IMG/VR virus record: IMGVR_UViG_3300037067_019759
Length of the DNA stretch: 33,961 nt
Source of the DNA: a virus
Lineage: Duplodnaviria > Heunggongvirae > Uroviricota > Caudoviricetes
Strand: one strand, 5' to 3'
The stretch's first letter is position 1; each line of letters opens with the position of its first letter. Below the pieces are notes generated by a model that had not been told where the DNA came from, did not search any database, and saw only the letters and a list, made by a program, of their open reading frames with translations. The position numbers and the translations under genes were made by a program. This document shows, piece after piece, positions 2 through 33,961 of this stretch.

Positions 2-70
2 TTGGCATGGTTGGCGGGGTCGGCGCGGTCGGCGCGGTCGGCGCGGTCGGCATGGTCGGCGCGGTCGGCA
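2..70 (+). repeat. In-frame 9-bp tandem repeat (TCGGCGCGG/TCGGCATGG) encoding SAR/SAW
   Basis: Visible directly; about 7 degenerate units. Confidence 0.9.
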
Positions 71-712
71 TTAGATTATGATTTTGATTGGTATGTTTTT
101 GAATTTGAATACTGCAAAAATCCAGATAAAGAATATCCGCCCAAAAAAGAAGACAGCCAATATTTAGAATATTGTGAACTGTTAATGCAAGCTAAAGAAT
201 ATGGTATGGGATATCGCGTGGAATGGGAGGACACACTGTATTGTGTGCCAACACCTCTTGTTTGTGTTGACGAACAAAATCGTTTTCATTCTGAAATAAA
301 ACCAGCAATTTTTTGGAAAGGTGGAAAAAAATTTTATTTTTTGAAAGGAATAAGTTTCCCCAAAGATTTATGGCAAAAAATAGTTAATCATACTATTACT
401 CCCAAAGAAGCGATGGAATTAAAAAACGCGGAACAAAGAGCAATCGCAATGCGTTATATCGGGTACGAAAAATTATTAAAAGAAACCAACGCCAAACAAA
501 TAGGAAAAGATGAGTATGGAGAAATCATAGAATTGGATATTTTGGACATCAACAATGATAAATTAAGATATTATATCGCGATAGACCCAAGTAAGAACGA
601 AAAAATAGCTTTATTAGTAAGTCCTGATACACAAACGCCAAAGGAAGCAATGACAAAATATTATCATTTAGATATTTTAGGTTTGGAATATAAACCGGAT
701 ATGCGAACTTAG
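2..712 (+). CDS. DUF6745-like phage protein, probably 5'-truncated by the window
   Basis: SAR/SAW repeats, then DEQNRFHSEIKPAIFWKGG..FYFLKGISFP and ITPKEAMELKNAEQRAIAMRYIGYEKLL, matching the recalled DUF6745 pattern (RLH...PAI.W.DG...Y...G..VP). Confidence 0.6.
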   Translation: MAWLAGSARSARSARSAWSARSALDYDFDWYVFEFEYCKNPDKEYPPKKEDSQYLEYCELLMQAKEYGMGYRVEWEDTLYCVPTPLVCVDEQNRFHSEIKPAIFWKGGKKFYFLKGISFPKDLWQKIVNHTITPKEAMELKNAEQRAIAMRYIGYEKLLKETNAKQIGKDEYGEIIELDILDINNDKLRYYIAIDPSKNEKIALLVSPDTQTPKEAMTKYYHLDILGLEYKPDMRT

Positions 713-14910: not shown

Positions 14911-15480
14911 ATGAAGGAATTAAAACCAATTATAATAACCGGCGATGGCTTGGGCCAAGGCGGGTTTTATCAAAAAAATGAATATGCGCAGAACATTTTA
15001 TTAAAAGCATTGTCCAGTGGTATCACTGACGTGCAAGAATTACGGCGCTTAGCGGGGTTAAGAACGGCAGTTGATGTTTATCGCACGCTGGACAAAATGG
15101 CAATTCGCAAGGACTATCATCGGGCATTAAGTGATGCCGGGTTAAGTTTGGATTACGTAGTAGGAAAAATAAAAAATATTATTGATAATGAAGATGGTAA
15201 AGACGATACCAAACTTAAAGCGTTGCAGACGCTGATGACTTCGCTTGGTTTAGATAAGTATCAGAAGGAAGAAGAAGGCGGTAAAAATTGGGAAGAAGCT
15301 ATTATCGGAGCTTTGGAAAAGACTGAACAAAAACAATTAGATGATCCTTCAAATTTAAATAAAGACAATTCGTTGGAAGTTGATGATTATGAAGTAGTGA
15401 TTCCTGAAGTTCCTCAAGAGGCGGTGGATCAAAGAAAAAAAGAAGAAGAATTGGGAAAGGAAATTTATGGAGATATCTAA
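14911..15480 (+). CDS. terS: Probable terminase small subunit
   Basis: Overlaps the terL start; SLDYVVGKIKNII..DDTKLKALQTLMTSLGL resembles the TerS oligomerisation helices. Confidence 0.65.
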   Translation: MKELKPIIITGDGLGQGGFYQKNEYAQNILLKALSSGITDVQELRRLAGLRTAVDVYRTLDKMAIRKDYHRALSDAGLSLDYVVGKIKNIIDNEDGKDDTKLKALQTLMTSLGLDKYQKEEEGGKNWEEAIIGALEKTEQKQLDDPSNLNKDNSLEVDDYEVVIPEVPQEAVDQRKKEEELGKEIYGDI

Positions 15481-18400
15481 AGAAGAAACTTTAAAAAGAT
15501 TGCGTGATCCGAAATTTTATTTAGAAAATTTTTGTCGTATTAAGGGAAAATTGCAAGGTAGTCTTATCCCGTTTGTTTTAAATGAAGCACAGAAAGATTT
15601 GTTTAATACGTTGAAGAAATATTCGCGTATTTTAATTAACAAGGGTCGGCAATTAGGAACTTCAACTGGTGCTGTAGGTTGGATTTATCATAATACAATA
15701 ACAAACCCAGGGACTACCAGCGCCTTGATTGGATATAATACGCAATTAACTGCTGAATTACTTGATAAAGTTAAAACATTATATCAATCTACGCCTGATG
15801 AATTAAAACCAACAATCCATTATAATTCCAGATGGGAAATAAGTTTTCCTAAAATTAATTCTAAAATTTTAGTGATTGCCGCTGGTGATAGCGTAGGGCG
15901 TGGTTTTACTTTAAATAATGTTCTCTGCGTTTCGGGAGAAATTGAAGTTTTTATTGAAAATGGATTTACTAAAAAAGTTAAAGACATAAAAGATGGTGAT
16001 TTTATTTTAAACGGAAGGGGCGGATTGGCAAAAGTAAAAATGGTTATAAAAAAGAAAAATGATAAAAATTTATTAAGAATAAAAATAGTTGGTAATAATG
16101 ATCTTGTAGTAACAGAAGATCACGAAATTTTAGTTAGAGGCAGTAAATTAAATGGATATAAGCATGAATGGAAAAAAGCTTCAGATTTAACTAATAAGGA
16201 TAGAATTGGATATCCTCATTTTCAATGTAGAAACAGAAATAAAACCATTAAAATACCTAATATAATAAATGAAGATTATTTAAGTAGAAGTAATTTAAGT
16301 AAAGTTAATAATGTAATTAATATAGATTATAACTTTGGGTTATTTATTGGTTGGTATTTAGCAGAAGGAAATATAAAAAAAAATGTAAAAAAAGATTTTA
16401 GCGGAGTACAATTTTCAATTCATAAAGATGAGGTCGATGAGGTGTTGGGAGTAATAGAAAAAAGTGTAAAAAAAAATGTTGGCAAGATATCGGTATATTA
16501 TAGCAAAAAAAGTAAGACAGCAGTTATTAATTTATATGATAAAAATTTTTCTAAATTTATTTATGATATATTCGGAGATGGATCATTAAATAAAATAATT
16601 AATGATTGTATTTGGTATTGGAATACTGATTTTGCATATGGTCTTCTTGCTGGATTGTTTAAGGGCAATGGATATTTAAAAAAAACTAATAGATCTCAAC
16701 TAATTAGTATTAATAAACAATTAATATATCAAGTAAAAAAACTTTTAATTTCCTTGAGAATAGGAATGCCTAATATCAATCATCATGATACTAATAGATA
16801 TGGAGTAAAAAATCAACATCGCTATGATTTAATATTAGGCGGTAAATCTAATTATAAGTTTAGAAAAAAATTAAATTTTGAATTACCAATTTACGATAAT
16901 GGCAGAGGAAAATGGTTGTTAGAAAATTTGCCTAATGTAAATCAGGGACATGGTACATCAAGAAAAGGGCGATACTTTTTTTGGTCAAAAATAAATAAAA
17001 TAGAAAAAAGTGATCATGAAGAATATGTATATGACATAGTAATGGATAAATCACCGCATAGTTTTTTAACGGTTTCAGGGGTAGTTCATAATTGCACTGA
17101 GCTTCCACAATGGGAAAATGCGGAAGAAAAACTAATTGCTTTGGAAGCTTCGGTACCGATTAGTGGTAAATTAATAATAGAATCAACTCCAATGTGGGTG
17201 GGAGATCTTTTCCACCGCTTGTGGGTTACCAAAGATAACGGTTATGTTAAAAAAGAATACGGCTGGTGGTGGGGGTATAGTTTTGAAGAGAAGGAAATTA
17301 TAAAAAAGAGAATGAACAACCCAATTAAGTTCGGACGCGAGTATGAACTTAAATTTCTTTCTACCGGTTTGGCGGTGTTTGATACGGATAAAATTCAAGG
17401 ACATTTTAAAAATATTTTAAAAGTAGGCGACAGCGTAAAGAATGAAGATGGCAGTGAAACGTTGGTGGAGAAATATGGCGATTGGGTGATTTATAAGAAA
17501 CCTAATCCTACGCATTTCTACTCGGTTGGTTGTTTACCTGACGGAGAAAAAGTTTTGACAAATAGTGGTTTAAAAAATATAGAAGATATTAATTTTAATG
17601 ATAAACTTATAGATGCTAATGGAAAAATTGTAAAAATAAAAAATATACAAAGAAGATATTATGAAGGAAAAATAATAGAAATAAAACCAAACTACACCTC
17701 TTTTTGTACAAAATTTACACCAGAACATCCCATTCTAGTATTGAAAGATAATAAATTATATAGAGAACAAAAAAAAATTAGTAGTAATTATGGAGAACGA
17801 TATTATAAAACAGATACTTTTTGGAAAATTGCTAAAGATTTAACTGAAAATGATATTTGTAAAATTCCTATTAGATTTAAAAAAGAATTATCAAAAAATA
17901 AAATATTAAAACGTTTTTCTAAGCAAAAAAATGTTAGAATTGATAGAAGATTAAATCCTAATATAATTTTAGAGGAAGATTTTTGGTTTTTTATTGGTTT
18001 ATGGTTAGCTGAAGGATGGACAACTCAAGATATAATTAGAAATGATAGAATAATTAATACCTATGGTGTGACTATTCATTTAAATGCTCTAACAGAAAAA
18101 TTTTTAGTTAATAAAATTTTAAAAGTTATTAAAAAGTATTTTAATAGAAATGTTAATTATAGGGTTAAACAAGAATGTAATGTAATTGATATTAAGTTTA
18201 ATTCAGAAGTGATTCATAAATTTATAAATGATAACTTTGGTCAAAAAGCTAAAAATAAAGATATAAAAGAATGGATTAAATATTTACCAGCTAATTTAAA
18301 GATGGCGTTGTTTAATGGATACAGAACAGGAGATGGATGTGAATCAATGCAAAAAAATGGATTATCTATAAATTGTGTTTCTATATCAGAAAAATTGTTA

Positions 18401-19285
18401 TATGATTTTCAAGAAATTCTTTTATCTATGGATATTATTTCTGCGGTTGGGGTATTAAGAAAAGAGGGGTATCATACAATTAATGACAGGAAATGTTATT
18501 GTCAAAAAACATTTCAATTAAATATTTCAGTTAGAGATTCTGAGAAGATATTAAATAAAAATAATAAATTTTTTAGAAAAAGACATAAAAGATATGGATG
18601 GATAAAGGATGGATTTTTATATGTGAAAATAGGAAGAATAAAGAAAGTTTATTATAATGGATTTGTTAATAATTTTGAAACTGAAACTCATAGCTATCAA
18701 TCTCCATTTTTAATTACACATAATTGCGACGTGGCCGAAGGATTAGAAGGTGGAGATTTTTCCTGCGCTGTAATTTGGGACAGAACTACTGGCGAGGAAG
18801 TAGCATTCTACCATCGTTATATTCCTCCTGATGTATTTGCTAAAGAATTAAACACGGTCGGCAGATTATATAATAACGCATTGATGGTGGTGGAAATTAA
18901 TAACCATGGTTTAACTGTCGTTTCAAATTTAAAACAATTATTATACCCTAATTTTTATTTCCGGCTGGAGAAGTACGAAACAATAGGGATGACTAGCAGT
19001 GACCGGATTGGTTGGAAAACAAATAAGATGACGCGTCCGGTATTGATTGATGAGTTTGACAAAGCATTCCGCGAGGATTTACTTTTAATCCACAGTAAGG
19101 AATTATTAGATGAAATGATTGTGTTTATTTATGATAAGAATGGAGATATGAACGCTACGCCCGGTTACAAAGATGATTCTATCTTCGCGGCGGCGATTGG
19201 TTGGCAAGGATTTAAAGTGACCTCTGCCGTCGCGCTTGAGCAGTTGGACTACAATTCTTATCTCCCGAAGTCATACGCGTACTAA
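15467..19285 (+). CDS. terL: Terminase large subunit with two inteins (about 485 aa after splicing)
   Basis: INKGRQLGTST (Walker A); GRGFTLNNVL/CTE (Walker B region); IIESTP; YSVG/CDVAEG..GGDFS and EINNHG, KDDSIFA (RNase H-like nuclease). Confidence 0.93.
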   Translation: MEISKEETLKRLRDPKFYLENFCRIKGKLQGSLIPFVLNEAQKDLFNTLKKYSRILINKGRQLGTSTGAVGWIYHNTITNPGTTSALIGYNTQLTAELLDKVKTLYQSTPDELKPTIHYNSRWEISFPKINSKILVIAAGDSVGRGFTLNNVLCVSGEIEVFIENGFTKKVKDIKDGDFILNGRGGLAKVKMVIKKKNDKNLLRIKIVGNNDLVVTEDHEILVRGSKLNGYKHEWKKASDLTNKDRIGYPHFQCRNRNKTIKIPNIINEDYLSRSNLSKVNNVINIDYNFGLFIGWYLAEGNIKKNVKKDFSGVQFSIHKDEVDEVLGVIEKSVKKNVGKISVYYSKKSKTAVINLYDKNFSKFIYDIFGDGSLNKIINDCIWYWNTDFAYGLLAGLFKGNGYLKKTNRSQLISINKQLIYQVKKLLISLRIGMPNINHHDTNRYGVKNQHRYDLILGGKSNYKFRKKLNFELPIYDNGRGKWLLENLPNVNQGHGTSRKGRYFFWSKINKIEKSDHEEYVYDIVMDKSPHSFLTVSGVVHNCTELPQWENAEEKLIALEASVPISGKLIIESTPMWVGDLFHRLWVTKDNGYVKKEYGWWWGYSFEEKEIIKKRMNNPIKFGREYELKFLSTGLAVFDTDKIQGHFKNILKVGDSVKNEDGSETLVEKYGDWVIYKKPNPTHFYSVGCLPDGEKVLTNSGLKNIEDINFNDKLIDANGKIVKIKNIQRRYYEGKIIEIKPNYTSFCTKFTPEHPILVLKDNKLYREQKKISSNYGERYYKTDTFWKIAKDLTENDICKIPIRFKKELSKNKILKRFSKQKNVRIDRRLNPNIILEEDFWFFIGLWLAEGWTTQDIIRNDRIINTYGVTIHLNALTEKFLVNKILKVIKKYFNRNVNYRVKQECNVIDIKFNSEVIHKFINDNFGQKAKNKDIKEWIKYLPANLKMALFNGYRTGDGCESMQKNGLSINCVSISEKLLYDFQEILLSMDIISAVGVLRKEGYHTINDRKCYCQKTFQLNISVRDSEKILNKNNKFFRKRHKRYGWIKDGFLYVKIGRIKKVYYNGFVNNFETETHSYQSPFLITHNCDVAEGLEGGDFSCAVIWDRTTGEEVAFYHRYIPPDVFAKELNTVGRLYNNALMVVEINNHGLTVVSNLKQLLYPNFYFRLEKYETIGMTSSDRIGWKTNKMTRPVLIDEFDKAFREDLLLIHSKELLDEMIVFIYDKNGDMNATPGYKDDSIFAAAIGWQGFKVTSAVALEQLDYNSYLPKSYAY
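15926..17092 (+). mobile_element. Intein 1 (389 aa) with LAGLIDADG endonuclease domain
   Basis: Begins CVSGEIEV, has block B TEDHEILV and GWYLAEG / AGLFKGNG, ends VVHN before +1 Cys. Confidence 0.92.
17531..18724 (+). mobile_element. Intein 2 (398 aa) with LAGLIDADG endonuclease domain
   Basis: Begins CLPDGEKV, has TPEHPILV and GLWLAEG / GYRTGDG, ends ITHN before +1 Cys. Confidence 0.92.
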
Positions 19286-20071: not shown

Positions 20072-22132
20072 ATGGCAAGCCGAAAAACATATGATGCAAA
20101 ACGATTTGGCGGGGCGGAAGAAGAAGCAATGATGGTGAAATTCAAGATACAACGTGATGATGCGAAACAATATTTTGAAAATATTATTAAACCGCGGTTG
20201 GATAGAGCATACAAATTATATATCGCTTATAACGGCGATCGGGCAAAAGAAATAAAAAGTTGGCAAGCTAATGTGTTTGTCCCCTATATTCAATCAGTAG
20301 TGGAAACGTTAATGCCTCGTATTCTTGACGCACGTCCTGATTTTACAGTGCAAGGGAGAGGCCCCGAGGATCAATTGAAAGCTAATCGCGTGCAGAATAC
20401 GTTGGATTATACTTGGGAGATAGCCAATATGGACCCCACGGCGGAGATAGTTGCGCGTTCGTCTTTAATTTATGGTACCGGTTTTTTAGAAGTCGGTTGG
20501 AAAAAAGATGTACGAACTTATAAATTTTTAAGTACTAAAGATTTAGCTAAGAAAAAATATGTGTGGAAAGAAAAGAAGCAAGTCTTTTATGATGCTCCTT
20601 TTTGCGAATGGGTTGATAATTATAACCTTTGGTATGATTGGCATAACATTCCACGCGAGAGTAAACAATATTGGTTTAAACGTTTGATATTAAGCGGAGC
20701 GGAAATTAAACGTCGATTTCCGTATTATGACGAAGAACGATTGGCTATTGCCTTGGAAAAGAATAGTGGTAATTTAATTGATTATGCGCAAATTAGAAAT
20801 ACGGTTAAGTTAACTCATGATAGTGTAGTTAAGGGAGCTGATTTTGGTCAAGGATATAGCGGGATAGGTAGTGATATTTATAATAATACTAGCGATCCTG
20901 ATTTAAGAATGCATGAAGTATTTTGTTGGACTAGACCGTTTGACGATGCTTATGCGGTAATAATAAATGAAGTTCCGATATTAAAAGGAGCGGTGATGCC
21001 TATTTTATATGATTTTAAGGAAACTACTTTTATTGATATTCCTTGTTTGAAATTACCAAATGAATTTGAGGGCATAGGATTCCCGATGCTTTTAGAAAAT
21101 TCGCAGATAATGTTGAATATGATTAAGAATCAACGATTAGACGCGGTGACACTTAATATCCATAAAATGTGGATAGTAAATCCGTTGGCTAATATTAATA
21201 AAGCCGATTTAGTTACCAGGCCATTTGGTATTATTTATTCTCCAGACCCAAATGGAGTGCGAGAGGTGCAATTTTCAGATGTTAAATCTAGCGCCTATAA
21301 AGAGGAAGATAGCGTTAAGAGTGATATGCGGTACGCTTCCGGTGTTGATGATTTTTCAATGGGAGCGGGAGGTTCTGCCAGTAGCGCTACGGAAGTGCGT
21401 CATTTAAGAGAATCTACTTTGGAGCGCGTGCGTTTGTTTGTTAATCATCTGGGAGATTCTTATTCTAAGGTAATGCGTTGTTGGATTTCAATGTATCGCC
21501 AATTTTTAAGCGAACCAATGAGAATAAGAATAACCGGAGAGAATGGCAAGGTAGAATTTCCTTTAATTGAAAAAGATGATTTGATGGGACAGTTTGATTT
21601 TAAAGCAACTGTAATTCCGTCTATCGCCGGTAAGAATGATGTGGATAAGAAACAGAATATGGATTTGTTTCAATTATTATCACAAATGCCATTTATTGAT
21701 TTGCAGAAGCTTACGTCTAAGGTATTATTGCCTTGGGGTTGGGATTTGGAATCGATAGTAGCAGAGAGTCAGCCAGCGTCGGAAGGTACCACTGGGTTAG
21801 AAGAAATGATGCCACAGGAAGCAACGGCAGAGGATGAACTGCCACAAATTGGTAGTGGAGAAGTGCCACAAAGCGTTATTGACCAAGCGGTAGCAATGAT
21901 TGGCGGTGCTCCGGCAGAAGGAGCGTCCCCATTCACAGAAGCGTCTAACCCGATAAATCTATTGCAAGGTGGAGGTACGCCCCCAACAGCGCCGGGAATA
22001 CCAGCTAGCACAACAAATCCTCGTGGTATGAGTAGGGGCGCAGGGTCAAAAGTGAATACTAATATACCAAATAATGCTAATAATTCAGTGGAATCTAATT
22101 TACTTAACCGCGTGAATAGTATTCAAAGGTGA
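20072..22132 (+). CDS. Portal protein (large, P22-like type)
   Basis: 686 aa between terL and the scaffold/capsid genes; helical core and a low-complexity C-terminal tail. Confidence 0.8.
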   Translation: MASRKTYDAKRFGGAEEEAMMVKFKIQRDDAKQYFENIIKPRLDRAYKLYIAYNGDRAKEIKSWQANVFVPYIQSVVETLMPRILDARPDFTVQGRGPEDQLKANRVQNTLDYTWEIANMDPTAEIVARSSLIYGTGFLEVGWKKDVRTYKFLSTKDLAKKKYVWKEKKQVFYDAPFCEWVDNYNLWYDWHNIPRESKQYWFKRLILSGAEIKRRFPYYDEERLAIALEKNSGNLIDYAQIRNTVKLTHDSVVKGADFGQGYSGIGSDIYNNTSDPDLRMHEVFCWTRPFDDAYAVIINEVPILKGAVMPILYDFKETTFIDIPCLKLPNEFEGIGFPMLLENSQIMLNMIKNQRLDAVTLNIHKMWIVNPLANINKADLVTRPFGIIYSPDPNGVREVQFSDVKSSAYKEEDSVKSDMRYASGVDDFSMGAGGSASSATEVRHLRESTLERVRLFVNHLGDSYSKVMRCWISMYRQFLSEPMRIRITGENGKVEFPLIEKDDLMGQFDFKATVIPSIAGKNDVDKKQNMDLFQLLSQMPFIDLQKLTSKVLLPWGWDLESIVAESQPASEGTTGLEEMMPQEATAEDELPQIGSGEVPQSVIDQAVAMIGGAPAEGASPFTEASNPINLLQGGGTPPTAPGIPASTTNPRGMSRGAGSKVNTNIPNNANNSVESNLLNRVNSIQR

Positions 22133-24258: not shown

Positions 24259-25524
24259 ATGCCTTATCCATATACGACAGAACCGACTCATGTGCAAGGT
24301 ACAGTAGCGGCAGCTCCGCGTACTACGCATGAATCAGGTTCTTCACACGAGAATATTCAAAAATTGGATGTTGTAGACAAAATATTCATGCTTGAACCTC
24401 GTAAAACACCGTTTATTCAATTATTAACAAATGTTGGACGTTCTTATGACGGTACCTCTTGGCAGGGTTCAGCATTGCAAAAAGCACCAACGGTAAATAC
24501 TGAATTTAAATGTTTTGAGGATCAATATGGTGGTCGGTACGCGAAGGTAAATCTTGCGTACAATGCCGGTGACGATCCGGTAACCATTACCGTTTCCGGT
24601 GCTGGTTCAAGTTCAGCTTATATTTTTACTAAAGGCGATATTATAATGAATTATCGTACTGGTGAACGTATGAAAGTTGCTTCAGTCTCTGGTACCACCA
24701 CTATTACCGCTAATCGTTCAATCGGAACAACTCCGGGGACAGCTGGCGTAATTGGCGATGGTTTGTATATTATCGGTAATGCGAATGAGGAAAATGCGAC
24801 TGCGCGCAACGTTAACACTACATTAAAAACAGCGCAGACGAATTTGACCCAAACGTTTCGAACCAGTATATCAGTTTCTGGATCTCAAATGGCAACTGCT
24901 CAATATGGTGAAGCAGAACTTCCTTTTCAACGTCGGAAGAAAGGTATTGAGCATTTGCTTGATATCGAGCGAGCATTTATGTTTTCTGAAAAAAATGATG
25001 GTACTGGAGCTTCTAGTCTTCCTGAAAGAACTACTGGCGGTTTGTTAGAATTTATTGAAGGTGGCAACTCTTACGTTCAAGATCAAGGCGGCGTGTTGAC
25101 TGCTCCTGATTTTGACGTATTTTTGAGAGAAGGTTTCACCTACGGCGATGGCACTAAACTATTGCTTTGCGGCGGTCCGGTGTTATCAGCTATCAATGAA
25201 ATAGCCCGCGGTCAGATTGTAACTAAAACTGGTGATAAATCTTACGGATTGCAGATAACTGAATGGCAATCTCCGCATGGTGTTGTTAATATTGTACGTC
25301 ATCCGTTCTTAGTTCAAGATTTTGCCGGTTACGCATTTTTACTTGATTTAAATTCATTCAGATATCGTTATTTATCTGCTAATGGAGTAAATCGCGATAC
25401 TAAATTAAATCTTAATATTCAAGCTAACGGCACGGACGGTATTGTAGATGAATATTTGACTGAGTGCGGTTTGGAACGTAATCAAGCAGCTCATCACGCG
25501 TTACTAAAAGGTGTATTATCCTAG
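24259..25524 (+). CDS. Major capsid protein (SU10/DUF5309 type, HK97 fold)
   Basis: EPRKTPF; N.TQTFRTSISVSGS; QRRKKGIEHLLDIERAF; RTTGGLLEFI; DEYLTECGLE. Confidence 0.88.
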   Translation: MPYPYTTEPTHVQGTVAAAPRTTHESGSSHENIQKLDVVDKIFMLEPRKTPFIQLLTNVGRSYDGTSWQGSALQKAPTVNTEFKCFEDQYGGRYAKVNLAYNAGDDPVTITVSGAGSSSAYIFTKGDIIMNYRTGERMKVASVSGTTTITANRSIGTTPGTAGVIGDGLYIIGNANEENATARNVNTTLKTAQTNLTQTFRTSISVSGSQMATAQYGEAELPFQRRKKGIEHLLDIERAFMFSEKNDGTGASSLPERTTGGLLEFIEGGNSYVQDQGGVLTAPDFDVFLREGFTYGDGTKLLLCGGPVLSAINEIARGQIVTKTGDKSYGLQITEWQSPHGVVNIVRHPFLVQDFAGYAFLLDLNSFRYRYLSANGVNRDTKLNLNIQANGTDGIVDEYLTECGLERNQAAHHALLKGVLS

Positions 25525-25657: not shown

Positions 25658-26362
25658 ATGGGATACGATTTTTCAAAAACGAGAGAGTTATTAAGCGGTT
25701 CTAAAGCGGCAATGATCGTTTATAATGAACCAGTGGCTCTTCGTTTAAAATATAAAGGAACAGGCACGGTTACTTCCGTTACTGTAACAACTGGTACTAA
25801 TATAGTATTGGTTACTTCCGATGGGGGGACTGATACTTATGCTTTTGCTACATTTACTACGATGGGAAATTTAGAGGATGCTATCAATTCTGATGGTATT
25901 TTTGAAGCAAAAGTGTTGGATGCATTACGTCAAGATTTAACTTCAGGAAGTCCGCTGGTTGATGGTGCTAAAACTATCACTACTGATGGTTATTATGATT
26001 TATGCGTTGATACTAATGTTACTTTTTCTTTAACTTATCGTTGTGCTTATGACAGAAATGTTAAAAAAGAAGCACCAGTGTACAATCATCGCGTTAAATT
26101 AAATGAGTTTATTTATTATGCCACACTTGGTAATGCTTCTGCGAATGACGTTCAAGTATGGGAATACGACAGAGAACATAATACTGAAACTCAAGTGTAT
26201 CAAGCTACTTCAGTAAGTGCTACTGTCACTACTACTAGATTTGCTAATGGCAAAGGTAATATTTGCAGTGGAAATGGAAATGATTTGATTGTTAGATTAA
26301 TTGACAATACTTCTTTGGCCGATTCTGGAGCTTTCTTGCAAGTAAACTATACTAGAGAATAA
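25658..26362 (+). CDS. Virion protein, paralog A (capsid decoration/auxiliary candidate)
   Basis: Beta-rich, Thr/Val-rich; follows the MCP; clearly similar to 26480-27202. Confidence 0.75.
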   Translation: MGYDFSKTRELLSGSKAAMIVYNEPVALRLKYKGTGTVTSVTVTTGTNIVLVTSDGGTDTYAFATFTTMGNLEDAINSDGIFEAKVLDALRQDLTSGSPLVDGAKTITTDGYYDLCVDTNVTFSLTYRCAYDRNVKKEAPVYNHRVKLNEFIYYATLGNASANDVQVWEYDREHNTETQVYQATSVSATVTTTRFANGKGNICSGNGNDLIVRLIDNTSLADSGAFLQVNYTRE

Positions 26363-26479: not shown

Positions 26480-27202
26480 ATGGCTAGTTTAAAATCAATT
26501 TTGGAAAAAGCCGCATTAGCAAAAAATGTTGTCGGCACTGTTGTCGCTGATACTCCAGTAGCTATCAGAATAAAGTATATTGGTTCTGGTTCTGTTACTT
26601 CCGTTACTGTCGATACTGATCAAGATATTACGTTAGTATCGGTAGAGAGCGGGACAACGGTTACGGAAGAATATTTATTAGCTACTTATACCACAATGGG
26701 AGCGTTAGCTGATAGAATAAATAACAGTCAATATTGGGATGCCGAAGTGGTAGACGCGTTAAGAGCAGATTCAACTGCGAGTAGTCCGTTTGTTGATAAT
26801 GCCTCCCTAACTATTACGGCAGATGGGTATTACGATGCGTTAGTAGACACAAATGTTACTCTCACCCTTACTTACCGATGCGCATATGATCGTGGAGTTA
26901 ATGAATCGGAAGTAAAACCAAAAGGAGCTCATCGAGTGCATTTGCAAGATATCGTGTATTACGCGGATGTAACTGGAGGAGCGGCTAATGAGTTTAGGAT
27001 TTATGAGTATAATCCGACTACTTTAGCGGAAACTCAAGTATATCAGGCAACATTAGTTGATGGCGTGGAAACAAGAGTAAATTTTGCCAATGGAGAGGGA
27101 GAAATAACCTCTGATTGGAATAATGATTTAATCGTGAGAATTGTTGAAAACGCGGCGTTAGCTGATACTTGCTACATGTACGTTAGTTATATAGCAGAAT
27201 AA
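26480..27202 (+). CDS. Virion protein, paralog B
   Basis: Shares PVA.R.KY, VTSVTV, DALR.D, DGYYD..VDTNVT..LTYRCAYDR, ETQVYQAT and NDLIVR with paralog A. Confidence 0.75.
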   Translation: MASLKSILEKAALAKNVVGTVVADTPVAIRIKYIGSGSVTSVTVDTDQDITLVSVESGTTVTEEYLLATYTTMGALADRINNSQYWDAEVVDALRADSTASSPFVDNASLTITADGYYDALVDTNVTLTLTYRCAYDRGVNESEVKPKGAHRVHLQDIVYYADVTGGAANEFRIYEYNPTTLAETQVYQATLVDGVETRVNFANGEGEITSDWNNDLIVRIVENAALADTCYMYVSYIAE

Positions 27203-27829: not shown

Positions 27830-29332
27830 ATGCACACAACAGCAATAAGTGATTATACTCACTTATTCTATGACCCCTTTATTTACGGTTATGATGATAA
27901 TTTCTTCAAGACTATTTCTGGAAGTGTAACCGTTGTTAATGGGAAAATTAGAATAAATTGCGGTACGGATAGCACTGGCAGGGCTAATTCTACAACCATG
28001 TTTATGTTTGGAGAATTAAACTACAGTATGACTATTCCTACCGCTCCGACAGCTGGTGATAATAGAGTTTGGGGTTTTTATTCACGCGCAATGCAGAATA
28101 GAAATGCCGCTTATTTTTATATTACCGGAACAAATTTTTACGCTAGGTCGTATGGTGATACTAGCTTAGTGTCTGAATCTACTACCATAGTTTGGGAAGA
28201 TGCGTGGACTAATACTCCAATTGATTTTAAAATTGTTTGGCGTATTGAACGAGTTGACTTTTATATTGATAATCGGTTGATGGCTACTCATACTACTAAA
28301 GTTCCGAAGCAAGTGTTAATGCCGATGTATTTTTCTAATGGAGCGAACGACAATATGTATGTTAATTTTATAGAAATTAGCAATGCAAGAAAAATGTATT
28401 TTGGCAAGACAACATTATGGATTTCTACATCATCAAGTACTTCACCAAGTATGTCGCCTTCTTTATCTCCATCATATTCTCCCTCTATTAGTCCGTCTTA
28501 TTCACAGTCACTCAGTCCTTCGAAATCACCGTCTATAAGTCCCTCTATTAGTCCGTCTTATTCACAGTCACTCAGTCCTTCAAAATCACCGTCGCTCAGT
28601 CCTTCCATTAGTCCTTCGGCAAGTCCTTCCGCTTCTTACAGTCCTTCAAAATCACCGTCTATAAGTCCCTCTATTAGTCCGTCTTATTCACAGTCACTCA
28701 GTCCTTCAAAATCACCGTCGCTCAGTCCGTCTATTTCACCGTCAGCAAGTTCTTCCGCTTCTTATAGTCCTTCGGTATCACCGTCATACAGTCCGTCACT
28801 CAGTCCGTCTTATTCACAGTCTCTCAGTCCTTCTATCAGTCCTTCGGCAAGTCCTTCCGCTTCTTACAGTCCTTCAAAATCACCGTCATACAGTCCGTCA
28901 CTCAGTCCGTCTTATTCGCCGTCGCTTAGTCCGTCTTTCTCTTCGTCGCTTAGTCCTTCCTATTCTCCGTCTCTTAGTCCATCTATTAGTCCTTCACTTA
29001 GTGTATCGACGTCGCCTAGCGTTTCTATTTCTCCGTCATACAGTCCTTCTTTATCTCCATCATTTAGTCCCTCTGCATCGCCAAGTAAGTCGCCTTCTTA
29101 TTCACCGTCACTCAGCCCCTCTATTTCACCGTCATCCAGTCCTTCCGCTTCTTACAGTCCTTCTTATTCATCGTCACTCAGCCCCTCTATTTCACCGTCA
29201 TCCAGTCCTTCCGCTTCTTACAGTCCTTCCTTATCTCCGTCATACAGTCCCTCTTTATCTCCGTCATACAGTCCCTCTTTATCTCCGTCATACAGTCCTT
29301 CAGTTAGTCCTTCGGTGTCACCGAGTTTTTAA
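27830..29332 (+). CDS. ConA/GH16-like beta-sandwich fused to a ~300-aa Ser/Pro repeat tail
   Basis: [22 protein letters not shown] (GH16-like strand pattern; no EIDxE), then (SPSx)n; no signal peptide or TM segment. Confidence 0.8.
28424..29329 (+). repeat. Degenerate 12-bp coding repeat (SPSx; x = L/I/Y/A/K/S/V/F) with higher-order blocks
   Basis: Visible directly; for example AGTCCGTCTTATTCACAGTCACTCAGTCCTTC recurs near 28490, 28550 and 28676. Confidence 0.95.
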
Positions 29333-29342
29333 TGTAATAAAT

Positions 29343-29369
29343 GAGGGGAGAGTTATCCACTTTCCCCTC
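29343..29369 (+). other. GC-rich intergenic hairpin without U tract
   Basis: GAGGGGAGAGT-tatcc-ACTTTCCCCTC (11 bp, one G-U). Confidence 0.6.
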
Positions 29370-29385
29370 TCGCAGGAATAAATAT

Positions 29386-29688
29386 ATGGAAAATGAAAAA
29401 TATGAACAATTATTAGAGAAAGTAATAGTTTCCACTGAAGAACAAAAGAGTATCTCTAAAAGTTTATTAGATGTGGCTCAAGGTTTGCGTGAAAATACAA
29501 AATATTTAAATGACAATTTTATTCTTCATTCTCAACAAACAATTGATATTTCTAAAGATATTAAATTGATAAAGAATGATTTAGTCAGATATTTAAAAGT
29601 GGCGTTGATTATTTTGTTTTTAATATTGGGTGGAGCGTCAGTGGTAAAGATAACTGGCATTGATTTTTTTAAGAATTTATTGATGTAA
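29386..29688 (+). CDS. Coiled-coil protein with C-terminal TM helix (holin/XhlA-like candidate)
   Basis: Start moved to ATG 29386; VALIILFLILGGASVV TM segment; opens the membrane-protein cassette. Confidence 0.6.
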   Translation: MENEKYEQLLEKVIVSTEEQKSISKSLLDVAQGLRENTKYLNDNFILHSQQTIDISKDIKLIKNDLVRYLKVALIILFLILGGASVVKITGIDFFKNLLM

Positions 29689-29692
29689 TTAT

Positions 29693-29983
29693 ATGCTTAT
29701 AGCGACTATCTGTTATACATTATCTTTGATTGTGTTAGGTGCGTTAATTGGTTCTTATTTAATTGCTTATATATTAGATAAATCAATATCAATACTTTCT
29801 TTGTTGTTATTTTTGATATCGATTTTTCTCGTTGTTTTAGTTATTACTTCTAATTATTGGTTAAGTTATTATGGATTAAAAGAAATAACCTGTTTAGTAA
29901 TGGCTGATTTTCGTTCGATTATTTTATTAGTAACTAGTGTATTCTTTCTTTGGACAACTTGGAAAAATAAAACAAAAAAATGA
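29693..29983 (+). CDS. Three-TM membrane protein (holin-like candidate)
   Basis: Three hydrophobic segments and a basic C-terminus (KNKTKK). Confidence 0.65.
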   Translation: MLIATICYTLSLIVLGALIGSYLIAYILDKSISILSLLLFLISIFLVVLVITSNYWLSYYGLKEITCLVMADFRSIILLVTSVFFLWTTWKNKTKK

Positions 29984-30078
29984 TAGAAAAAATATTTAAA
30001 TGTATCATTATTGCCCTTGCGGCGATCGGAGCATTTTTTATAGGGATGGTAATGCATCTTTTATTTACTATGCCTTAA
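29980..30078 (+). CDS. 32-aa membrane peptide (not in ORF track)
   Basis: ATGA overlap; MIEKIFKCIIIALAAIGAFFIGMVMHLLFTMP. Confidence 0.5.
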   Translation: MIEKIFKCIIIALAAIGAFFIGMVMHLLFTMP

Positions 30079-30082
30079 ATTT

Positions 30083-31081
30083 ATGGATGAAGAAAAACAA
30101 TATTATGCTTTAGGCGCTAAAAAGAGTCCTAGAGATAAACGAGACTTTAAATTAGCGTCTATTCAATTGCCCGTAGAATTACCGAAGCAATTTGAGTTGC
30201 CTGAATTGTTTCCCCCAAAGAACCAGTGGCGCAGAGGTTCTTGTGTTTCCCAAGGTTCATCTCACCACAAAGAACGGCAAGAAAAGAAAAGAATATCCGC
30301 TCGTTTTATTATGGCTTTGGCAAAACAATTGGAAGGAAATATTGAGTATGGAGCGTATGGCAGGAGTGCTTTTAAGGTTTTAAAAGAAAGAGGAAGTTGC
30401 GAGGATAGTTTATATCCTGAGCCAGATTCTTCAATGACATGGGAGGAATATATTGATGTAAGTAAAATTCCTCTTGAGAATTTTGCCAATGCTTCTATAT
30501 ATAAAATTGGCAGTTATTGGTCGCCAGAAGTAAGTCCCGAGGGAATAAAACAGGCAATTTATCAAAATCCAGATAATTCGGTAGTTATTATAATGGAATG
30601 GTTTAAGGAATTTAATACCCCCCTTATTAATGGTGTTTTACCTGAACCGATTAATTCAGGTGGCGGACATATGGTTGAGGTTTGTGGTTGGGATGATCAA
30701 AAGGCTAACGGTAGTTTGAAATTAAAACAATCTTGGGGAAAAAATTGGGGGGTGAATGGATATTGCTGGCTACCTTATTCGTATTTTAAAAAGAAAATCA
30801 TTTGGGATGCTTGGATTTCTTTGGATTTACCAGATAAATTTTCAGTTGATGAACGATATGGTTTTGTGAGGACATGGCAGAAGTATATGCAAGAAAAAGC
30901 GATGGCGTTCAATCCTTGGCTTTATGGTAAGATTAAACGTTTGCCTAATAATCGGGAAATATCAGCGTTGGTGTATGGAAAACATGATTATAGTACGATA
31001 TTTGAGGGTAAAAATGGCAAAGTTTGGCTAGAAAAAACTAAACCGCAATTAATTAAAGAGGGATTTGATTATAAAATTTAG
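30083..31081 (+). CDS. Papain-like C1 cysteine peptidase, putative endolysin
   Basis: KNQWRRGSCVS (Gln/Cys), GGHMVEVCGWDD (His), KQSWGKNWGVNGY (normally KNSWG); flanked by membrane proteins. Confidence 0.82.
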   Translation: MDEEKQYYALGAKKSPRDKRDFKLASIQLPVELPKQFELPELFPPKNQWRRGSCVSQGSSHHKERQEKKRISARFIMALAKQLEGNIEYGAYGRSAFKVLKERGSCEDSLYPEPDSSMTWEEYIDVSKIPLENFANASIYKIGSYWSPEVSPEGIKQAIYQNPDNSVVIIMEWFKEFNTPLINGVLPEPINSGGGHMVEVCGWDDQKANGSLKLKQSWGKNWGVNGYCWLPYSYFKKKIIWDAWISLDLPDKFSVDERYGFVRTWQKYMQEKAMAFNPWLYGKIKRLPNNREISALVYGKHDYSTIFEGKNGKVWLEKTKPQLIKEGFDYKI

Positions 31082-31099
31082 TTACTAATCTAAAAATTT

Positions 31100-31279
31100 A
31101 TGCAAAAAATTGATTTTGTGATTTCAATTTTAGTGGCGATTGGTATTGTTGGCATTATTTTGCTTTTATCTTTGGATAAAAGTGTGGTAGTGCTTACTCC
31201 GATAGTGACTACATTAGTTGGTTATATCGTAGGTATTAAAAAAGAAGTAATCGCTGGTATGTTTAAGGCTAAATCTTGA
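31100..31279 (+). CDS. Two-TM holin-like protein, 59 aa (not in ORF track)
   Basis: MQKIDFVISILVAIGIVGIILLLSLDKSVVVLTPIVTTLVGYIVGIKK... Confidence 0.65.
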   Translation: MQKIDFVISILVAIGIVGIILLLSLDKSVVVLTPIVTTLVGYIVGIKKEVIAGMFKAKS

Positions 31280-31304
31280 CAAAATATTGGATGCTTGCTA
31301 TACT
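31276..31304 (+). promoter_or_regulatory. Sigma70-type promoter with TTGGA box
   Basis: TTGACA(31276-81)-17-TATACT(31299-304), with TGn and TTGGA at 31287-91. Confidence 0.8.
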
Positions 31305-31352
31305 GTAAATAATGAGTTTGTTTATAAGTTATTGGGTAGTAAAAATTAAAAA

Positions 31353-31446
31353 AATCGTGTGAAAAAAATAAATATAAAACAAAATGGGATTTCTAAGATG
31401 GCAAGGTTTACACGATTATTCCTGCCGTTTTGGGGGTCCCATTTTG
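31353..31446 (+). promoter_or_regulatory. Structured leader (long hairpin whose loop pairs with an upstream segment)
   Basis: 31380-89/31437-46 (10 bp); 31393-403/31423-33; loop 31407-17 is complementary to 31353-63. Confidence 0.55.
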
Positions 31447-31505
31447 AGTTATATGATATAACGTATCGGCATATACAAAGTATTATTTTTTAACTTTTAA
31501 ATTAT

Positions 31506-31718
31506 ATGAACAAGGTTACTTGGTTAAACGACAAAAAATTAAGATGTAAAAATTGCAAATATTTTACACTTAAATTTAAAGCGTATGATACAAAATTTCA
31601 TTTTCGTGTTGAATGTTTAAATTGTGGGGCAGTATTTCATTATTCCGATCGCGATCTTATATCGAAAATCCGTTCATTTCAGGAGAATAAAGAATCTGGA
31701 TTATCTTCTCACAATTAG
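31506..31718 (+). CDS. Zinc-ribbon protein
   Basis: CKNC ... CLNC. Confidence 0.6.
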   Translation: MNKVTWLNDKKLRCKNCKYFTLKFKAYDTKFHFRVECLNCGAVFHYSDRDLISKIRSFQENKESGLSSHN

Positions 31719-31833
31719 GGCAGGTAATTACTCTAATATTATTTAGAGGAATAGAAATTTCATCACCAATTACTTTTGGCAATGGTTCTATCCTTACTTC
31801 TGTTAATTTTTTGTCGCATCTTGGACACATCAT
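31657..31833 (-). CDS. Zinc-ribbon protein, YgiT/MqsA-N-like (start moved to 31833)
   Basis: MMCPRCDKKL...VITCPNCEK; preceded by TAACTTTAATCTT, resembling the early-cluster leaders. Confidence 0.6.
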   Translation of the reverse strand: MMCPRCDKKLTEVRIEPLPKVIGDEISIPLNNIRVITCPNCEKIIQILYSPEMNGFSI

Positions 31834-32017
31834 AAGATTAAAGTTAAGAATTAAAAAATAATATTTGGGTATAGTAAAGCGAAACTGTATATGCCGTGTT
31901 AGATGATGTGCTGTCTTCAGCATTTCATCTAACTGGAGGATATGCGAAATTACGCATATTAATTGTTATAAAATTTATGAAAAATGAAAATTTTTGGAAA
32001 GATATAATTTATAAAGT

Positions 32018-32203
32018 ATGATAACTGACAAAAATTTAAAAGATTTATTTGGATATATTAGAGCAAATTCAAAAACTGCTAAAGCTTTTATAGAAGATAA
32101 AAATGATAATGAAATTGTTATATCGTTTAATAAAATTAAAGATATATTAATATCGGAACAAATTTGGATTAAAAAAAATTATATTATAAAGAAAAAGGAA
32201 TAA
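32018..32203 (+). CDS. Hypothetical protein
   Basis: ATG ORF, 61 aa. Confidence 0.55.
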   Translation: MITDKNLKDLFGYIRANSKTAKAFIEDKNDNEIVISFNKIKDILISEQIWIKKNYIIKKKE

Positions 32204-32218
32204 TATATCTATTAATAT

Positions 32219-32332
32219 ATGACAAATAAACTACAACAATGGGAAAAGGTGACTAATGAACTTGCTGATGAATTTATAAACAAGTATTTTGATAAAGATG
32301 CTGAATATTGGTGGATCAATGATGGATTATAA
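32219..32332 (+). pseudogene. 37-aa truncated homolog of the 32907-33209 gene
   Basis: WEKVTNELADEFINKYF vs YEKAVVELSEFFVNKYF; a +1-frame GDVL follows, matching GDVM in the intact copy. Confidence 0.6.
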
Positions 32333-32361
32333 ATATTTTGGTGATGTGTTATTATATAAAT

Positions 32362-32910
32362 ATGAAACAAATAATTTGGAAAAAAATAAAAAATTATAAA
32401 GGTTATCAAGTTAGTAATATGGGATTAGTTAGAAGTGTTGATAGAATTATAAATCAAAAAATAAGACCACAATATAATTGGACTTTTAAAAGATTATGCA
32501 GAGGGAAAATAATAAAAGGTGATATTGAAAAAAGAGGATATATCCGCGTAATGCTTACTAATAGAAAAAGAGAATTAGTGCATAGATTAGTAGCACAAAC
32601 TTTTATACCAAATCCTAAAAAAAAGTTCTATATAAATCATTTAGATAATAACCCATCTAATAATAATGTTGATAATCTTGAATGGGTGACTCATAAAGAA
32701 AATATGCAACATTGTAAGGGACAAGGTAGACAAAGTAAAATTAGGGCATTAGGGGAAAATTGTGGTGCATCGAAATTATTAAATGAACAAGTAATAAAAA
32801 TAAGAAAATTACGATTCAAAATGAGTTATAGAAAAATAGGAAAAATGTTTGGAGTTAATCATTCAAGTATTAAAAATATAATGTTAAGAAGAACTTGGAA
32901 ACACATATGA
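32362..32910 (+). CDS. NUMOD4-HNH homing endonuclease with C-terminal HTH
   Basis: WKKIKNYKGYQVSNMGLVRS (NUMOD4); VHRLVAQTFIPNP..INHLDNNPSNNNVDNLEWVT..EN (HNH_3); GENCGASKL...RTWKHI. Confidence 0.92.
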   Translation: MKQIIWKKIKNYKGYQVSNMGLVRSVDRIINQKIRPQYNWTFKRLCRGKIIKGDIEKRGYIRVMLTNRKRELVHRLVAQTFIPNPKKKFYINHLDNNPSNNNVDNLEWVTHKENMQHCKGQGRQSKIRALGENCGASKLLNEQVIKIRKLRFKMSYRKIGKMFGVNHSSIKNIMLRRTWKHI

Positions 32911-33209
32911 AAAAAATTAAAGAAATAGAAAATTACGAAAAAGCAGTTGTAGAATTATCGGAATTTTTTGTTAATAAATATTTTGGAATAAATAACGAAC
33001 ACTATTTTGTGGGTGATTGCGTTGGAGACGTTATGTTTATTAATGATTATTTCTTTTCATTGGACGATATGGTTAATTTTTTAAGATATAAATATAGTGA
33101 GAAAGATGTGTTTGATTATTATGACTATCGGTTGGATATAGATACAAAAGGAAAAGAGACTGCGATTAATATTAAAAATTGGAAGAAATTAAAGAAAATA
33201 AATATATGA
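32907..33209 (+). CDS. Hypothetical protein, 100 aa (start moved to ATG 32907)
   Basis: ATGA overlap with the HNH stop. Confidence 0.7.
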   Translation: MKKIKEIENYEKAVVELSEFFVNKYFGINNEHYFVGDCVGDVMFINDYFFSLDDMVNFLRYKYSEKDVFDYYDYRLDIDTKGKETAINIKNWKKLKKINI

Positions 33210-33961
33210 ATAACATAAAGCTTAGTGTCGTGATTCCTTCGTACGCCGATCCGTATTGCCAACCAACTGTAAATTCTTTATTGGAAAATTCGGAGTTAGG
33301 GGATGGTTTGGAAGTGATAGTCGTATTGGATGGCCGATGGCCTGCTGTTCCTTTAAAGGATGATAAGAGGGTTAGAATTTTGCATTTGGGAAAAAATTTG
33401 GGGATGAGAGGTGCCATAAATTCAGGGGTAGCAATTTCTAGGGGAGAATTTATTATGAGAACGGATGAACATTGTAAATATTCAAAAGGTTATGATAAAA
33501 TTTTAGTGGAATCTTGCCAACCAAATTGGATAATGACTTTGAAGAGATATTTTTTAGATCCTATTAAATGGGAGTATATGGATATTCCGCCGATAGAATG
33601 TGAAAAATTAGTGATTCAAGATTGTGGTAATGGTGTTAGAAAATTTTCTGGACGAAAGTGGGATAGTAGGGCGGAAAGGTTAAAAAATGAACCAATTATT
33701 GAGGGTGAAGCAATGCAGGGGTCGATGTGGTGCATGAGGCGCGATTGGTGGAATAGTGTAATTGGAGAACTTCAGACAGACGGTTTTGGACCGCTTATAC
33801 AAGACTCAGTTGAAATGTGCATGAAAACTTGGAAAGCTGGGGGAAAATTAATGTGGAACAAGACTGCTCATTATGGACATAAACATCGTTCGTTCCCACG
33901 TTTACACAATAATGGGACACAAGAAAATCCCGCTAATTGCGATGCTGGTTATAAATATGCC
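33206..33961 (+). CDS. GT-A fold glycosyltransferase, ppGalNAc-T (GT27)-like or GT2; 3'-truncated and absent from the ORF track
   Basis: 252 open codons from ATG 33206 (ATGA overlap): LSVVIPS, EVIVVLDG, NLGMRGAINSG..ISRGEFIMRTDEHC, QGSMWCMRRDWW, VEMCMKTWKAGGKL, HYGHKHR. Confidence 0.9.
   Translation, partial: MNNIKLSVVIPSYADPYCQPTVNSLLENSELGDGLEVIVVLDGRWPAVPLKDDKRVRILHLGKNLGMRGAINSGVAISRGEFIMRTDEHCKYSKGYDKILVESCQPNWIMTLKRYFLDPIKWEYMDIPPIECEKLVIQDCGNGVRKFSGRKWDSRAERLKNEPIIEGEAMQGSMWCMRRDWWNSVIGELQTDGFGPLIQDSVEMCMKTWKAGGKLMWNKTAHYGHKHRSFPRLHNNGTQENPANCDAGYKYA

Follow-up and report, generated by a model that had tools for sequence, protein, structure and literature searches.

Does a tailed phage encode its own mucin-type protein O-glycosylation, with both the enzyme and the protein to be coated? 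The question is raised by a stretch of DNA of 33,961 nucleotides (IMG/VR virus record IMGVR_UViG_3300037067_019759), here called the window, which comes from an uncultivated, SU10-like tailed phage and carries capsid, portal, and terminase genes. Near its end lie a gene for a 500-amino-acid (aa) protein with a long tail of Ser-Pro-Ser-x (SPSx) units (27830-29332, plus strand) and, on the same strand, a glycosyltransferase gene (33206-33961), of which the window holds the first 252 of 272 codons before its end cuts the gene. An earlier note, made from the letters of this DNA, had proposed that the enzyme resembles the polypeptide GalNAc-transferases (ppGalNAc-Ts; glycosyltransferase family GT27) and modifies the repeat protein. 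Protein O-glycosylation started by ppGalNAc-Ts is regarded as a eukaryotic Golgi process, and, to our knowledge, only a few mycobacteriophages have so far been shown to have glycosylated particles. A literature search for GT27-like enzymes in phages or in bacteria of the candidate phyla radiation (CPR) found no publication describing such a system. The explanation that best accounts for the data as a whole, and that we favor with moderate confidence, is that the enzyme O-glycosylates the SPSx tail as the first-sugar transferase, which would give a mucin-like brush.

Sequence and fold of the glycosyltransferase

The ATG of the enzyme gene overlaps an upstream stop codon (ATGA), and the full length of 272 codons was obtained from the same gene on a public contig that ends 260 bp past it. 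The motifs and residue numbers given in the earlier note were all correct: the window enzyme has DEHC at residues 87 to 90, QGSMWCMRRDWW at 171, LIQD at 197, VEMCMKTWKAGGKL at 202, and YGH225KHR at 223. The protein matched PF00535 (Glycos_transf_2) with 46.7 bits against a cut-off of 23.3, over residues 7 to 103 only; GT27 catalytic domains fall under this model as well, so such a match cannot tell GT2 from GT27. The family proved to be very large and unusually well conserved, with 1,692 clusters at E <= 1e-3, the best 120 of which showed 61 to 87% identity at lengths of 254 to 284 aa, and 47 members were aligned. Invariant in this alignment were D91-E92-H93, Q175-G176-S177-x-W179, D204-S205-x-E207, W213, G217, and H229, in a numbering where D91, H93, and H229 correspond to D87, H89, and H225 of the window. 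The last three residues align with the DCH and GH residues of GalNAc-T4 and form the predicted metal triad, which would be of the Mn2+ type as in GT27.

Searches with the single enzyme sequence against all sequences in the Protein Data Bank (PDB) gave a near full-domain match only to ppGalNAc-Ts (E 1.5e-4), and a profile built from the 47 members reached GalNAc-T4 with an E value of 4.3e-8 over positions 5 to 223 of 268. In both searches together, the near-full-domain matches were only ppGalNAc-T4, T12, T9, T1, and TgGalNAc-T3. GT2 structures matched just the first ~90 profile positions, and the C-terminal half of the enzyme resembled GT27, not GT2, in the profile search. Pairwise alignment to GalNAc-T4 placed DEHC on DCHC, QGSMW on AGGLF, DSVEMxxKTWKAGGKL on ENLELSFRVWQCGGKL, and GH on GH.

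The fold comparisons, for which we used an AlphaFold2 (AF2) model of an 87%-identical full-length relative (pLDDT 94), gave the same picture. All of the top 50 Foldseek matches in the PDB were GT27 enzymes (E down to 4e-16, TMq 0.73 to 0.75), as were the top 30 in Swiss-Prot (all GALNTs). With VIA-align, GalNAc-T1 scored Z 24.4 over 258 residues and a second GT27 enzyme Z 23.8, while the GT2 enzymes (TarS/TarP, SpsA, K4CP, and others) reached Z 18 to 20.5 over 186 to 228 residues, which puts GT27 about 4 Z units and at least 30 aligned residues above the best GT2. Thus, by profile, Foldseek, and VIA-align, the enzyme did not cluster with GT2 enzymes of the DNA-, lipopolysaccharide-, or capsule-modifying type, an outcome that would have spoken against the earlier note. 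A role as a DNA-glycosylating enzyme was judged unlikely from the fold neighbors.

Several hallmarks of GT27 are missing, however, so the likeness to ppGalNAc-Ts claimed in the earlier note stands for the best full-length matches and fails for three features: the WGG motif, the lectin domain, and the membrane anchor. The Gal/GalNAc-T motif WGGENxE reads LIQDSVE in the window, as the note had pointed out for its first four residues, and [LT][IY]QDSxE in the family; of this motif only the acidic-x-x-Glu part (D204, S205, and E207) is invariant and W-G-G is absent. With WGGE replaced by LIQD, the donor sugar, and possibly the chemistry, may differ. There is no ricin-type lectin domain within the 272 codons, relatives being 258 to 284 aa long, and past the catalytic domain the model has just one terminal helix. 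The catalytic β-strand begins at residue 6, which leaves no room for the N-terminal anchor and stem of a type II topology. As the earlier note stated, neither protein of the pair has a hydrophobic segment, with maximum Kyte-Doolittle 19-residue means of 0.75 for the enzyme and 0.65 for the repeat protein. Because of the missing WGG motif, lectin domain, and anchor, and an identity of 16 to 21% to GT27, we call the enzyme GT27-like and do not file it under GT27; by sequence and model it is a putative compact, soluble GT-A relative of the mucin-initiating ppGalNAc-Ts.

The Ser-Pro repeat protein

The protein encoded at 27830-29332 consists of 195 N-terminal residues (27830..28414) and a 305-residue C-terminal tail (aa 196 to 500; 28415..29332 with the stop codon), the proposed O-glycosylation acceptor. 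Its gene lies 3.9 kb upstream of the enzyme gene on the same strand, in agreement with the ~4 kb estimated before, and the tail of ~300 aa that had been noted proved to hold 63 SPSx units, the last reading SPSF. The composition is 157 Ser (51%) and 63 Pro (21%), Ser occupies every second position (regularity of 96% at lag 2 and at all even lags), and x is Y, L, I, A, K, V, or F, mostly one of the first six. This regularity of Ser and Pro is far beyond chance. The DNA repeats underneath are imperfect, with 63 to 96% matches and higher-order periods of 60, 66, 102, and 126 bp, and all six Ser codons are in use, so the periodicity is kept at the level of the protein. Homologues from other samples had N-terminal domains 48 to 76% identical to that of the window, and six of seven carried the same tail type; in P0121 to P0126 the SPSx-type tails differed in length (about 90 to 125 aa) and in several ended in SPSF. 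NCBIfam serine-rich and MSCRAMM models matched the tail weakly. Each Ser of an SPSx unit has Pro at -1/+3 or at +1/-3, positions favored by animal ppGalNAc-Ts. As the tail and the enzyme come and go together across phages and CPR genomes (see below), the tail is very probably sugar-coated.

The N-terminal part gave a Pfam match to GH16 (E 4.6e-6), and its AF2 model was all-β (pLDDT 70), with residues ~34 to 192 forming a jelly roll of the ConA-like/GH16 type. In Foldseek searches the domain matched GH16 glucanases in the PDB (E 1e-7, TMq about 0.6) and phage ConA-like fiber and minor-tail proteins in BFVD. The alignment of the jelly-roll family contained no invariant Glu, so we read the domain as a probable binding or structural module and consider an active GH16 hydrolase unlikely. 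A tblastn search with the jelly-roll domain against 50,697 deposited phage records returned no match. The first ~33 residues were strongly conserved, with F13, Y14, and D15 invariant, and were modeled poorly; they may be where the protein docks onto the particle. The fold of the domain, together with the position of the gene between the capsid gene and the putative lysis block, points to a putative virion protein.

Some further features of the tail were observed. At position x, Tyr is the most frequent residue (15 of 63 units), and strings such as YSPSLSPS recall the heptad of the RNA polymerase II C-terminal domain as well as the Tyr-containing motifs of extensins. At 305 aa, the tail is two to three times the length of those of its closest homologues, and the higher-order DNA repeats of 102 and 126 bp suggest a recent expansion.

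Co-occurrence of the enzyme and SPSx repeats

If the two proteins are enzyme and substrate, their genes should be found together elsewhere, and we examined this in both directions. In the forward direction, 22 phage-type loci carrying the enzyme gene were inspected. Of these, the 13 with 5 kb or more of downstream sequence all had one to three SPSx open reading frames (ORFs), always on the strand of the enzyme gene, and in a few shorter phage loci such an ORF lay just upstream of it; the six phage loci without one had at most 4.9 kb of downstream sequence. In cellular loci, SPSx ORFs were found within 10 kb in 14 of 46. In four of the five large CPR contigs or chromosomes scanned, the SPSx-type matches were almost all confined to a zone 8 to 19 kb downstream of the enzyme gene, on its strand: on a 916-kb Woesebacteria chromosome this zone held 79 of 84 SPSx-pattern matches, the other five encoding a Thr-Pro repeat, and on a 268-kb contig every match listed was located there. 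The fifth had SPSSSV-type ORFs 3 to 7 kb downstream of the enzyme gene.

In the reverse direction, a pattern of seven [S/T/C/R]P[S/T/C/R]x units retrieved 120 IMG/VR loci, which were sorted by repeat type; the TPTx, RPRP, and CPCP repeats also caught by the pattern served as controls, and whole records were searched with the profile. A GT27-like gene was present in three of six SPSx-type contigs, the other three being 14 to 44% complete fragments, and in none of 39 control contigs (12 with (SP)n and 27 with TPTx, RPRP, or similar repeats; Fisher p about 0.001). Two of the three positives carried more distant GT27-like subfamilies (in G006 and G007), so the association reaches beyond the immediate family. 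The co-occurrence on which the idea of an enzyme-substrate pair depends was therefore strong in both directions (13/13; 3/6 versus 0/39), and it recurred within the phage's own lineage, as described below. With this, the two computational outcomes that the earlier note had listed as refuting its proposal both failed to appear. The genomes in question belong to CPR bacteria and their phages and are related, so that inherited synteny could account for some of the linkage.

The SPSx tracts were 100 to 1,400 residues long and were joined N-terminally, centrally, or C-terminally to about 36 flanking segments that had no BLAST-detectable similarity to one another; thus, they behave as would be expected of a portable acceptor tag. 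The GT27-like gene was the sole transferase present in every SPSx-bearing context examined.

Tail and enzyme within the phage lineage

Neither a GT27-like gene nor a tract of four SPSx units was found in any of eleven IMG/VR relatives with capsid proteins 52 to 60% identical to that of the window, among which are a complete genome of 97 kb and two genomes with a completeness of about 75%. The jelly-roll protein itself occurred with different tails. Orthologues of 172 to 181 aa had no tail in L195 to L198, as did one of two paralogues in each of L200 to L202, while those in L192 and L194 and the second paralogue in L200 to L202 had tails of other, non-Ser types. In L192 the absence of the enzyme was established for the 10 kb on either side. 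A PF00535 search found no GT2-family gene in the four best-sampled tail-less genomes. In L193, the orthologue had an SPSx tail and the GT27-like gene followed immediately downstream, and after it came genes for a TOD1/MUCI70-like protein, a GT1 enzyme, a DUF2334 protein, and three Methyltransf_24 proteins. A third type of tail, (SSST)n, was present in L203/L204; by the PF00535 search, this phage had two GT2-family genes, one of which encodes a GT2-methyltransferase fusion with no relation to the GT27-like family. On one orthologous protein, then, the type of tail tracks the type of transferase, with no discordant cases in a small sample.

In L203 (12155-13051 and 17167-19963; also in L204) the (SSST)n tail was accompanied by the GT2-methyltransferase fusion, a weak GT1-like protein, and another methyltransferase, and this tail with its other enzyme set may represent a second, independent pairing.

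These data bear on the possibility that the SPSx tail is an unmodified spacer or stalk and that the enzyme acts elsewhere, for instance on the capsid protein, on a globular domain, or on some host protein. Proteins of phages and bacteria often contain Pro-rich Ser/Thr linkers, most of them unmodified, and many TPTx linkers were found in phage contigs without such an enzyme. However, the SPSx tracts were the only feature tracking the enzyme across the dissimilar flanks, and tail-less orthologues were found exactly where GT2-family genes were absent, so we regard a bare spacer as unlikely.

Distribution of the enzyme family and its companion genes

The phage contigs that carried the enzyme family had structural modules of at least three unrelated kinds: Phage_capsid_4 in L001, a Mu-F portal and tape measure in L002/L003, and the SU10-type module in the window and L193. 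The family was also found in chromosomes of Patescibacteria (Woese-, Davies-, Yanofsky-, Roizman-, Levy-, Niyogi-, Andersen-, and Wolfebacteria, Microgenomates, and Paceibacterota), where the copies adjoin ordinary cellular genes such as those for G6PD, YchF, and TatC. A few bins with the family bore other labels, namely 'Gammaproteobacteria' (third-party annotation, about 0.9 Mb), Sphingomonas, or Micrarchaeota. No match was obtained when the enzyme was searched by tblastn against the 50,697 deposited phage records. As the family occurs in CPR chromosomes and in none of these records, we infer that the phage probably infects a CPR/Patescibacteria bacterium, one of the ultra-small bacteria.

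Across 66 loci, the companions of the enzyme included a 227-aa family without a Pfam match (52 loci) and Methyltransf_24 (39 loci), and relatives additionally had an RmlD-type reductase, a second GT2, and Methyltransf_21. The surroundings of the cellular copies leave room for another reading, in which the cassette with its enzyme makes or alters a glycan that is not attached to protein (for example, a polymer of the host envelope, a lipid-linked sugar, or sugars on phage DNA), and SPSx proteins merely belong to the same gene pool of CPR bacteria and their phages. The cellular copies indeed lie in long sugar-modification clusters with the RmlD-type reductase and methyltransferases, relatives are named 'glycosyltransferase involved in cell wall biosynthesis' by their sources, Pfam detects only a generic GT2 N-terminal half, and the compared genomes are mutually related. 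Nevertheless, the enzyme is soluble without a membrane segment, and its nearest relatives in structure and sequence act on peptides. Moreover, its linkage to the repeats spans unrelated phage structural modules, is specific to SPSx and not to TPTx or (SP)n, and keeps pace with the gain and loss of the tail in a single orthologous protein. On balance, we consider a non-protein product rather unlikely and O-glycosylation of the tail the better account of the pairing.

The order of the cassette genes bears on which enzyme would start the glycan. One to three further glycosyltransferases adjoin the GT27-like gene in relatives, and together with the frequent 227-aa family they supply candidates for another initiator; the GT27-like enzyme would then only extend, like the glycopeptide-preferring GalNAc-T isoforms. 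Against this, in many loci the cassette begins with the GT27-like gene, and this is the only transferase gene common to all of the SPSx contexts examined, including those with the distant subfamilies in G006 and G007. An initiating role for a different member of the cassette thus appears quite improbable, and the GT27-like enzyme remains our candidate for the transfer of the first sugar.

Two further arrangements were seen at these loci. A short radical-SAM/SPASM enzyme (~260 aa) was encoded directly after the GT27-like gene in L001 (8144-8917) and seven other loci, all of them of the phage type. In CPR chromosomes, TatC/TatA genes and small conserved ORFs lay directly upstream of the cluster of GT2 and GT27-like genes (L005, 6894-10789; the same in L006), and the TatC family was present in seven loci, which hints that glycosylated SPSx proteins of CPR cells might leave by the Tat route.

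Proposed pathway and comparison with known systems

In the pathway that we propose, a soluble cytoplasmic GT-A enzyme of the Mn2+ type, a distant sister of the eukaryotic polypeptide GalNAc-transferases, would transfer a first sugar from a nucleotide sugar to Ser hydroxyls of the SPSx repeats late in infection. The acceptor would be the 305-residue tail of the jelly-roll protein. Because the enzyme is soluble and the acceptors lack a signal peptide, the modification would take place in the host cytoplasm before assembly. The glycan would then be extended and methylated by a cassette such as that in relatives (second GT2, Methyltransf_24/21, radical-SAM/SPASM enzyme, and RmlD-type reductase), in which the 227-aa family would also help to elaborate it, and what results would be a mucin-like brush of glycans on a structural-module protein. 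Such a brush might serve in shielding, in adhesion to the host or to particles, or in mimicry of the host's own SPSx fibers. Observed here are the sequences, the likeness in fold, and the way the genes co-vary among genomes; the acceptor, the sugar, the cytoplasmic site, the place in the virion, and the role are inferences from them.

Several observations weigh against this proposal. The identity of the enzyme to GT27 is low (16 to 21%), its WGGE motif is replaced by LIQD, and the family is known from sequences and models. Another member of the cassette could be the one that acts first on the peptide, and this genome's own cassette lies beyond the window, the companions being those of relatives. 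For the 500-aa protein, incorporation into the virion is read from gene order and fold. Additionally, the genomes compared are kin, such that inherited synteny could explain part of the linkage, and the lineage table is small, with three tail-bearing against four well-sampled tail-less genomes.

Compared with eukaryotic GT27 enzymes (human GalNAc-T2, 2ffu; GalNAc-T4, 5nqa; mouse GalNAc-T1, 8v9q), the phage and CPR enzyme shares the GT-A fold, the DxH-Cys motif with a distal His, the order of the sequence blocks, and a presumed acceptor of Ser in Pro-rich repeats. In contrast to them, it is soluble with 272 aa, has no stem, transmembrane anchor, or ricin-type lectin domain, carries [LT][IY]QD in place of WGGE, and presumably acts in the cytoplasm.

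Among published systems, the closest precedent is the virion glycosylation of mycobacteriophages reported by Freeman et al. in 2023, as summarized in two later reports (PMC11256854, PMC12582341). In that system and, as proposed, in the present one, phage glycosyltransferases act on structural proteins of the same phage. Here the glycosyltransferase gene and that of a structural-module protein with a putative acceptor extension lie on one contig; the enzyme family is different, the presumed acceptor is a long SPSx tract, and the system is known from its genes. The two reports describe glycosyltransferases of mycobacteriophages (Che8, Rita, and others), phages of actinobacterial hosts, that decorate the phages' own structural proteins and form a glycan shield, with modified capsid and tail proteins detected by mass spectrometry.

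Similarly, the serine-rich repeat proteins (SRRPs) of Gram-positive bacteria (Fap1, GspB, and SraP) have Ser at alternate positions over hundreds of residues and are glycosylated by soluble cytoplasmic enzymes before export, as proposed here for modification before release. They differ in having no regular Pro, in initiation by the GT4 enzymes GtfA/GtfB, in export through the accessory Sec system (SecA2/SecY2), and in their LPXTG anchor; none of these was among the Pfam matches of the window ORFs scanned or of neighboring loci, where no dedicated search for them was made. Plant extensins and other hydroxyproline-rich glycoproteins also have Ser-Pro-rich repeats with interspersed Tyr and form heavily O-glycosylated extended rods, but theirs is a Ser-Hyp4 motif that undergoes prolyl hydroxylation and arabinosylation in the secretory pathway, and no prolyl hydroxylase was seen here.

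A wider hypothesis, to which we give slightly less than an even chance, is that CPR bacteria and several unrelated phage lineages share a cytoplasmic mucin-type O-glycosylation. In this scheme, a compact sister family of the ppGalNAc-Ts would initiate on portable (SPSx)n tracts, and phages would clothe structural proteins in a methylated brush; it may also bear on the origin of eukaryotic GT27. If true, it would constitute a prokaryotic and viral counterpart of mucin biosynthesis and would offer an outgroup candidate for tracing how GT27 arose, a simple enzyme of 272 residues with which to glyco-engineer Ser/Pro tags in the cytoplasm, and a handle on the surface biology (adhesion, shielding, and receptor mimicry) of unculturable CPR bacteria and their phages.

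Gene order and other features of the window

The gene at 24259-25524 (plus strand) encodes an SU10-type major capsid protein, which matched PF17236 (E 1.7e-50), the major head protein PHROG, and annotated capsid proteins of cultured phages, and which is less than 30% identical to the capsid protein of any deposited phage; its position places the repeat-protein gene inside the structural module. Directly after it are two genes for paralogous proteins of 234 and 240 aa (25658-26362 and 26480-27202), for which no family match was obtained; both keep their synteny in L192 and L193 and may serve as accessory proteins of the head or the tail. The window also encodes a 160-aa protein. Between the repeat-protein gene and the enzyme gene lies a probable lysis block (29341-31081, plus strand) of two small membrane-type proteins followed by a papain-like protein, and it too was syntenic in L192 and L193. 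The papain-family gene (Peptidase_C1; 30083-31081) kept its order after the two membrane-type proteins in both, and its product may be an unusual endolysin for CPR cell walls.

Farther along are small ORFs and a NUMOD4/HNH homing endonuclease gene (32338-32910, plus strand) just upstream of the enzyme gene, with a 100-aa ORF between the last two. Upstream of the capsid gene are those for RecA (1883-2932), the large terminase (15467-19285), and an SU10/P22-type portal (20072-22132), and the first ORF of the window (2-712) has a low-complexity run, ARSARSARSAWSARSA, at the window edge, followed by a DUF6745 domain. The terminase gene encodes 1,272 aa, with the terminase halves at aa 10 to 172 and 1087 to 1245; between them lie an intein with a LAGLIDADG domain and a further segment of ~280 aa matching a PHROG of unknown function, which may be a second insertion beside the intein. 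A LAGLIDADG intein was also found in the portal-MuF fusion gene of another phage with the GT27-like gene (L002, 3183-6698), and inteins and homing endonucleases seem to be frequent in phages that carry it.

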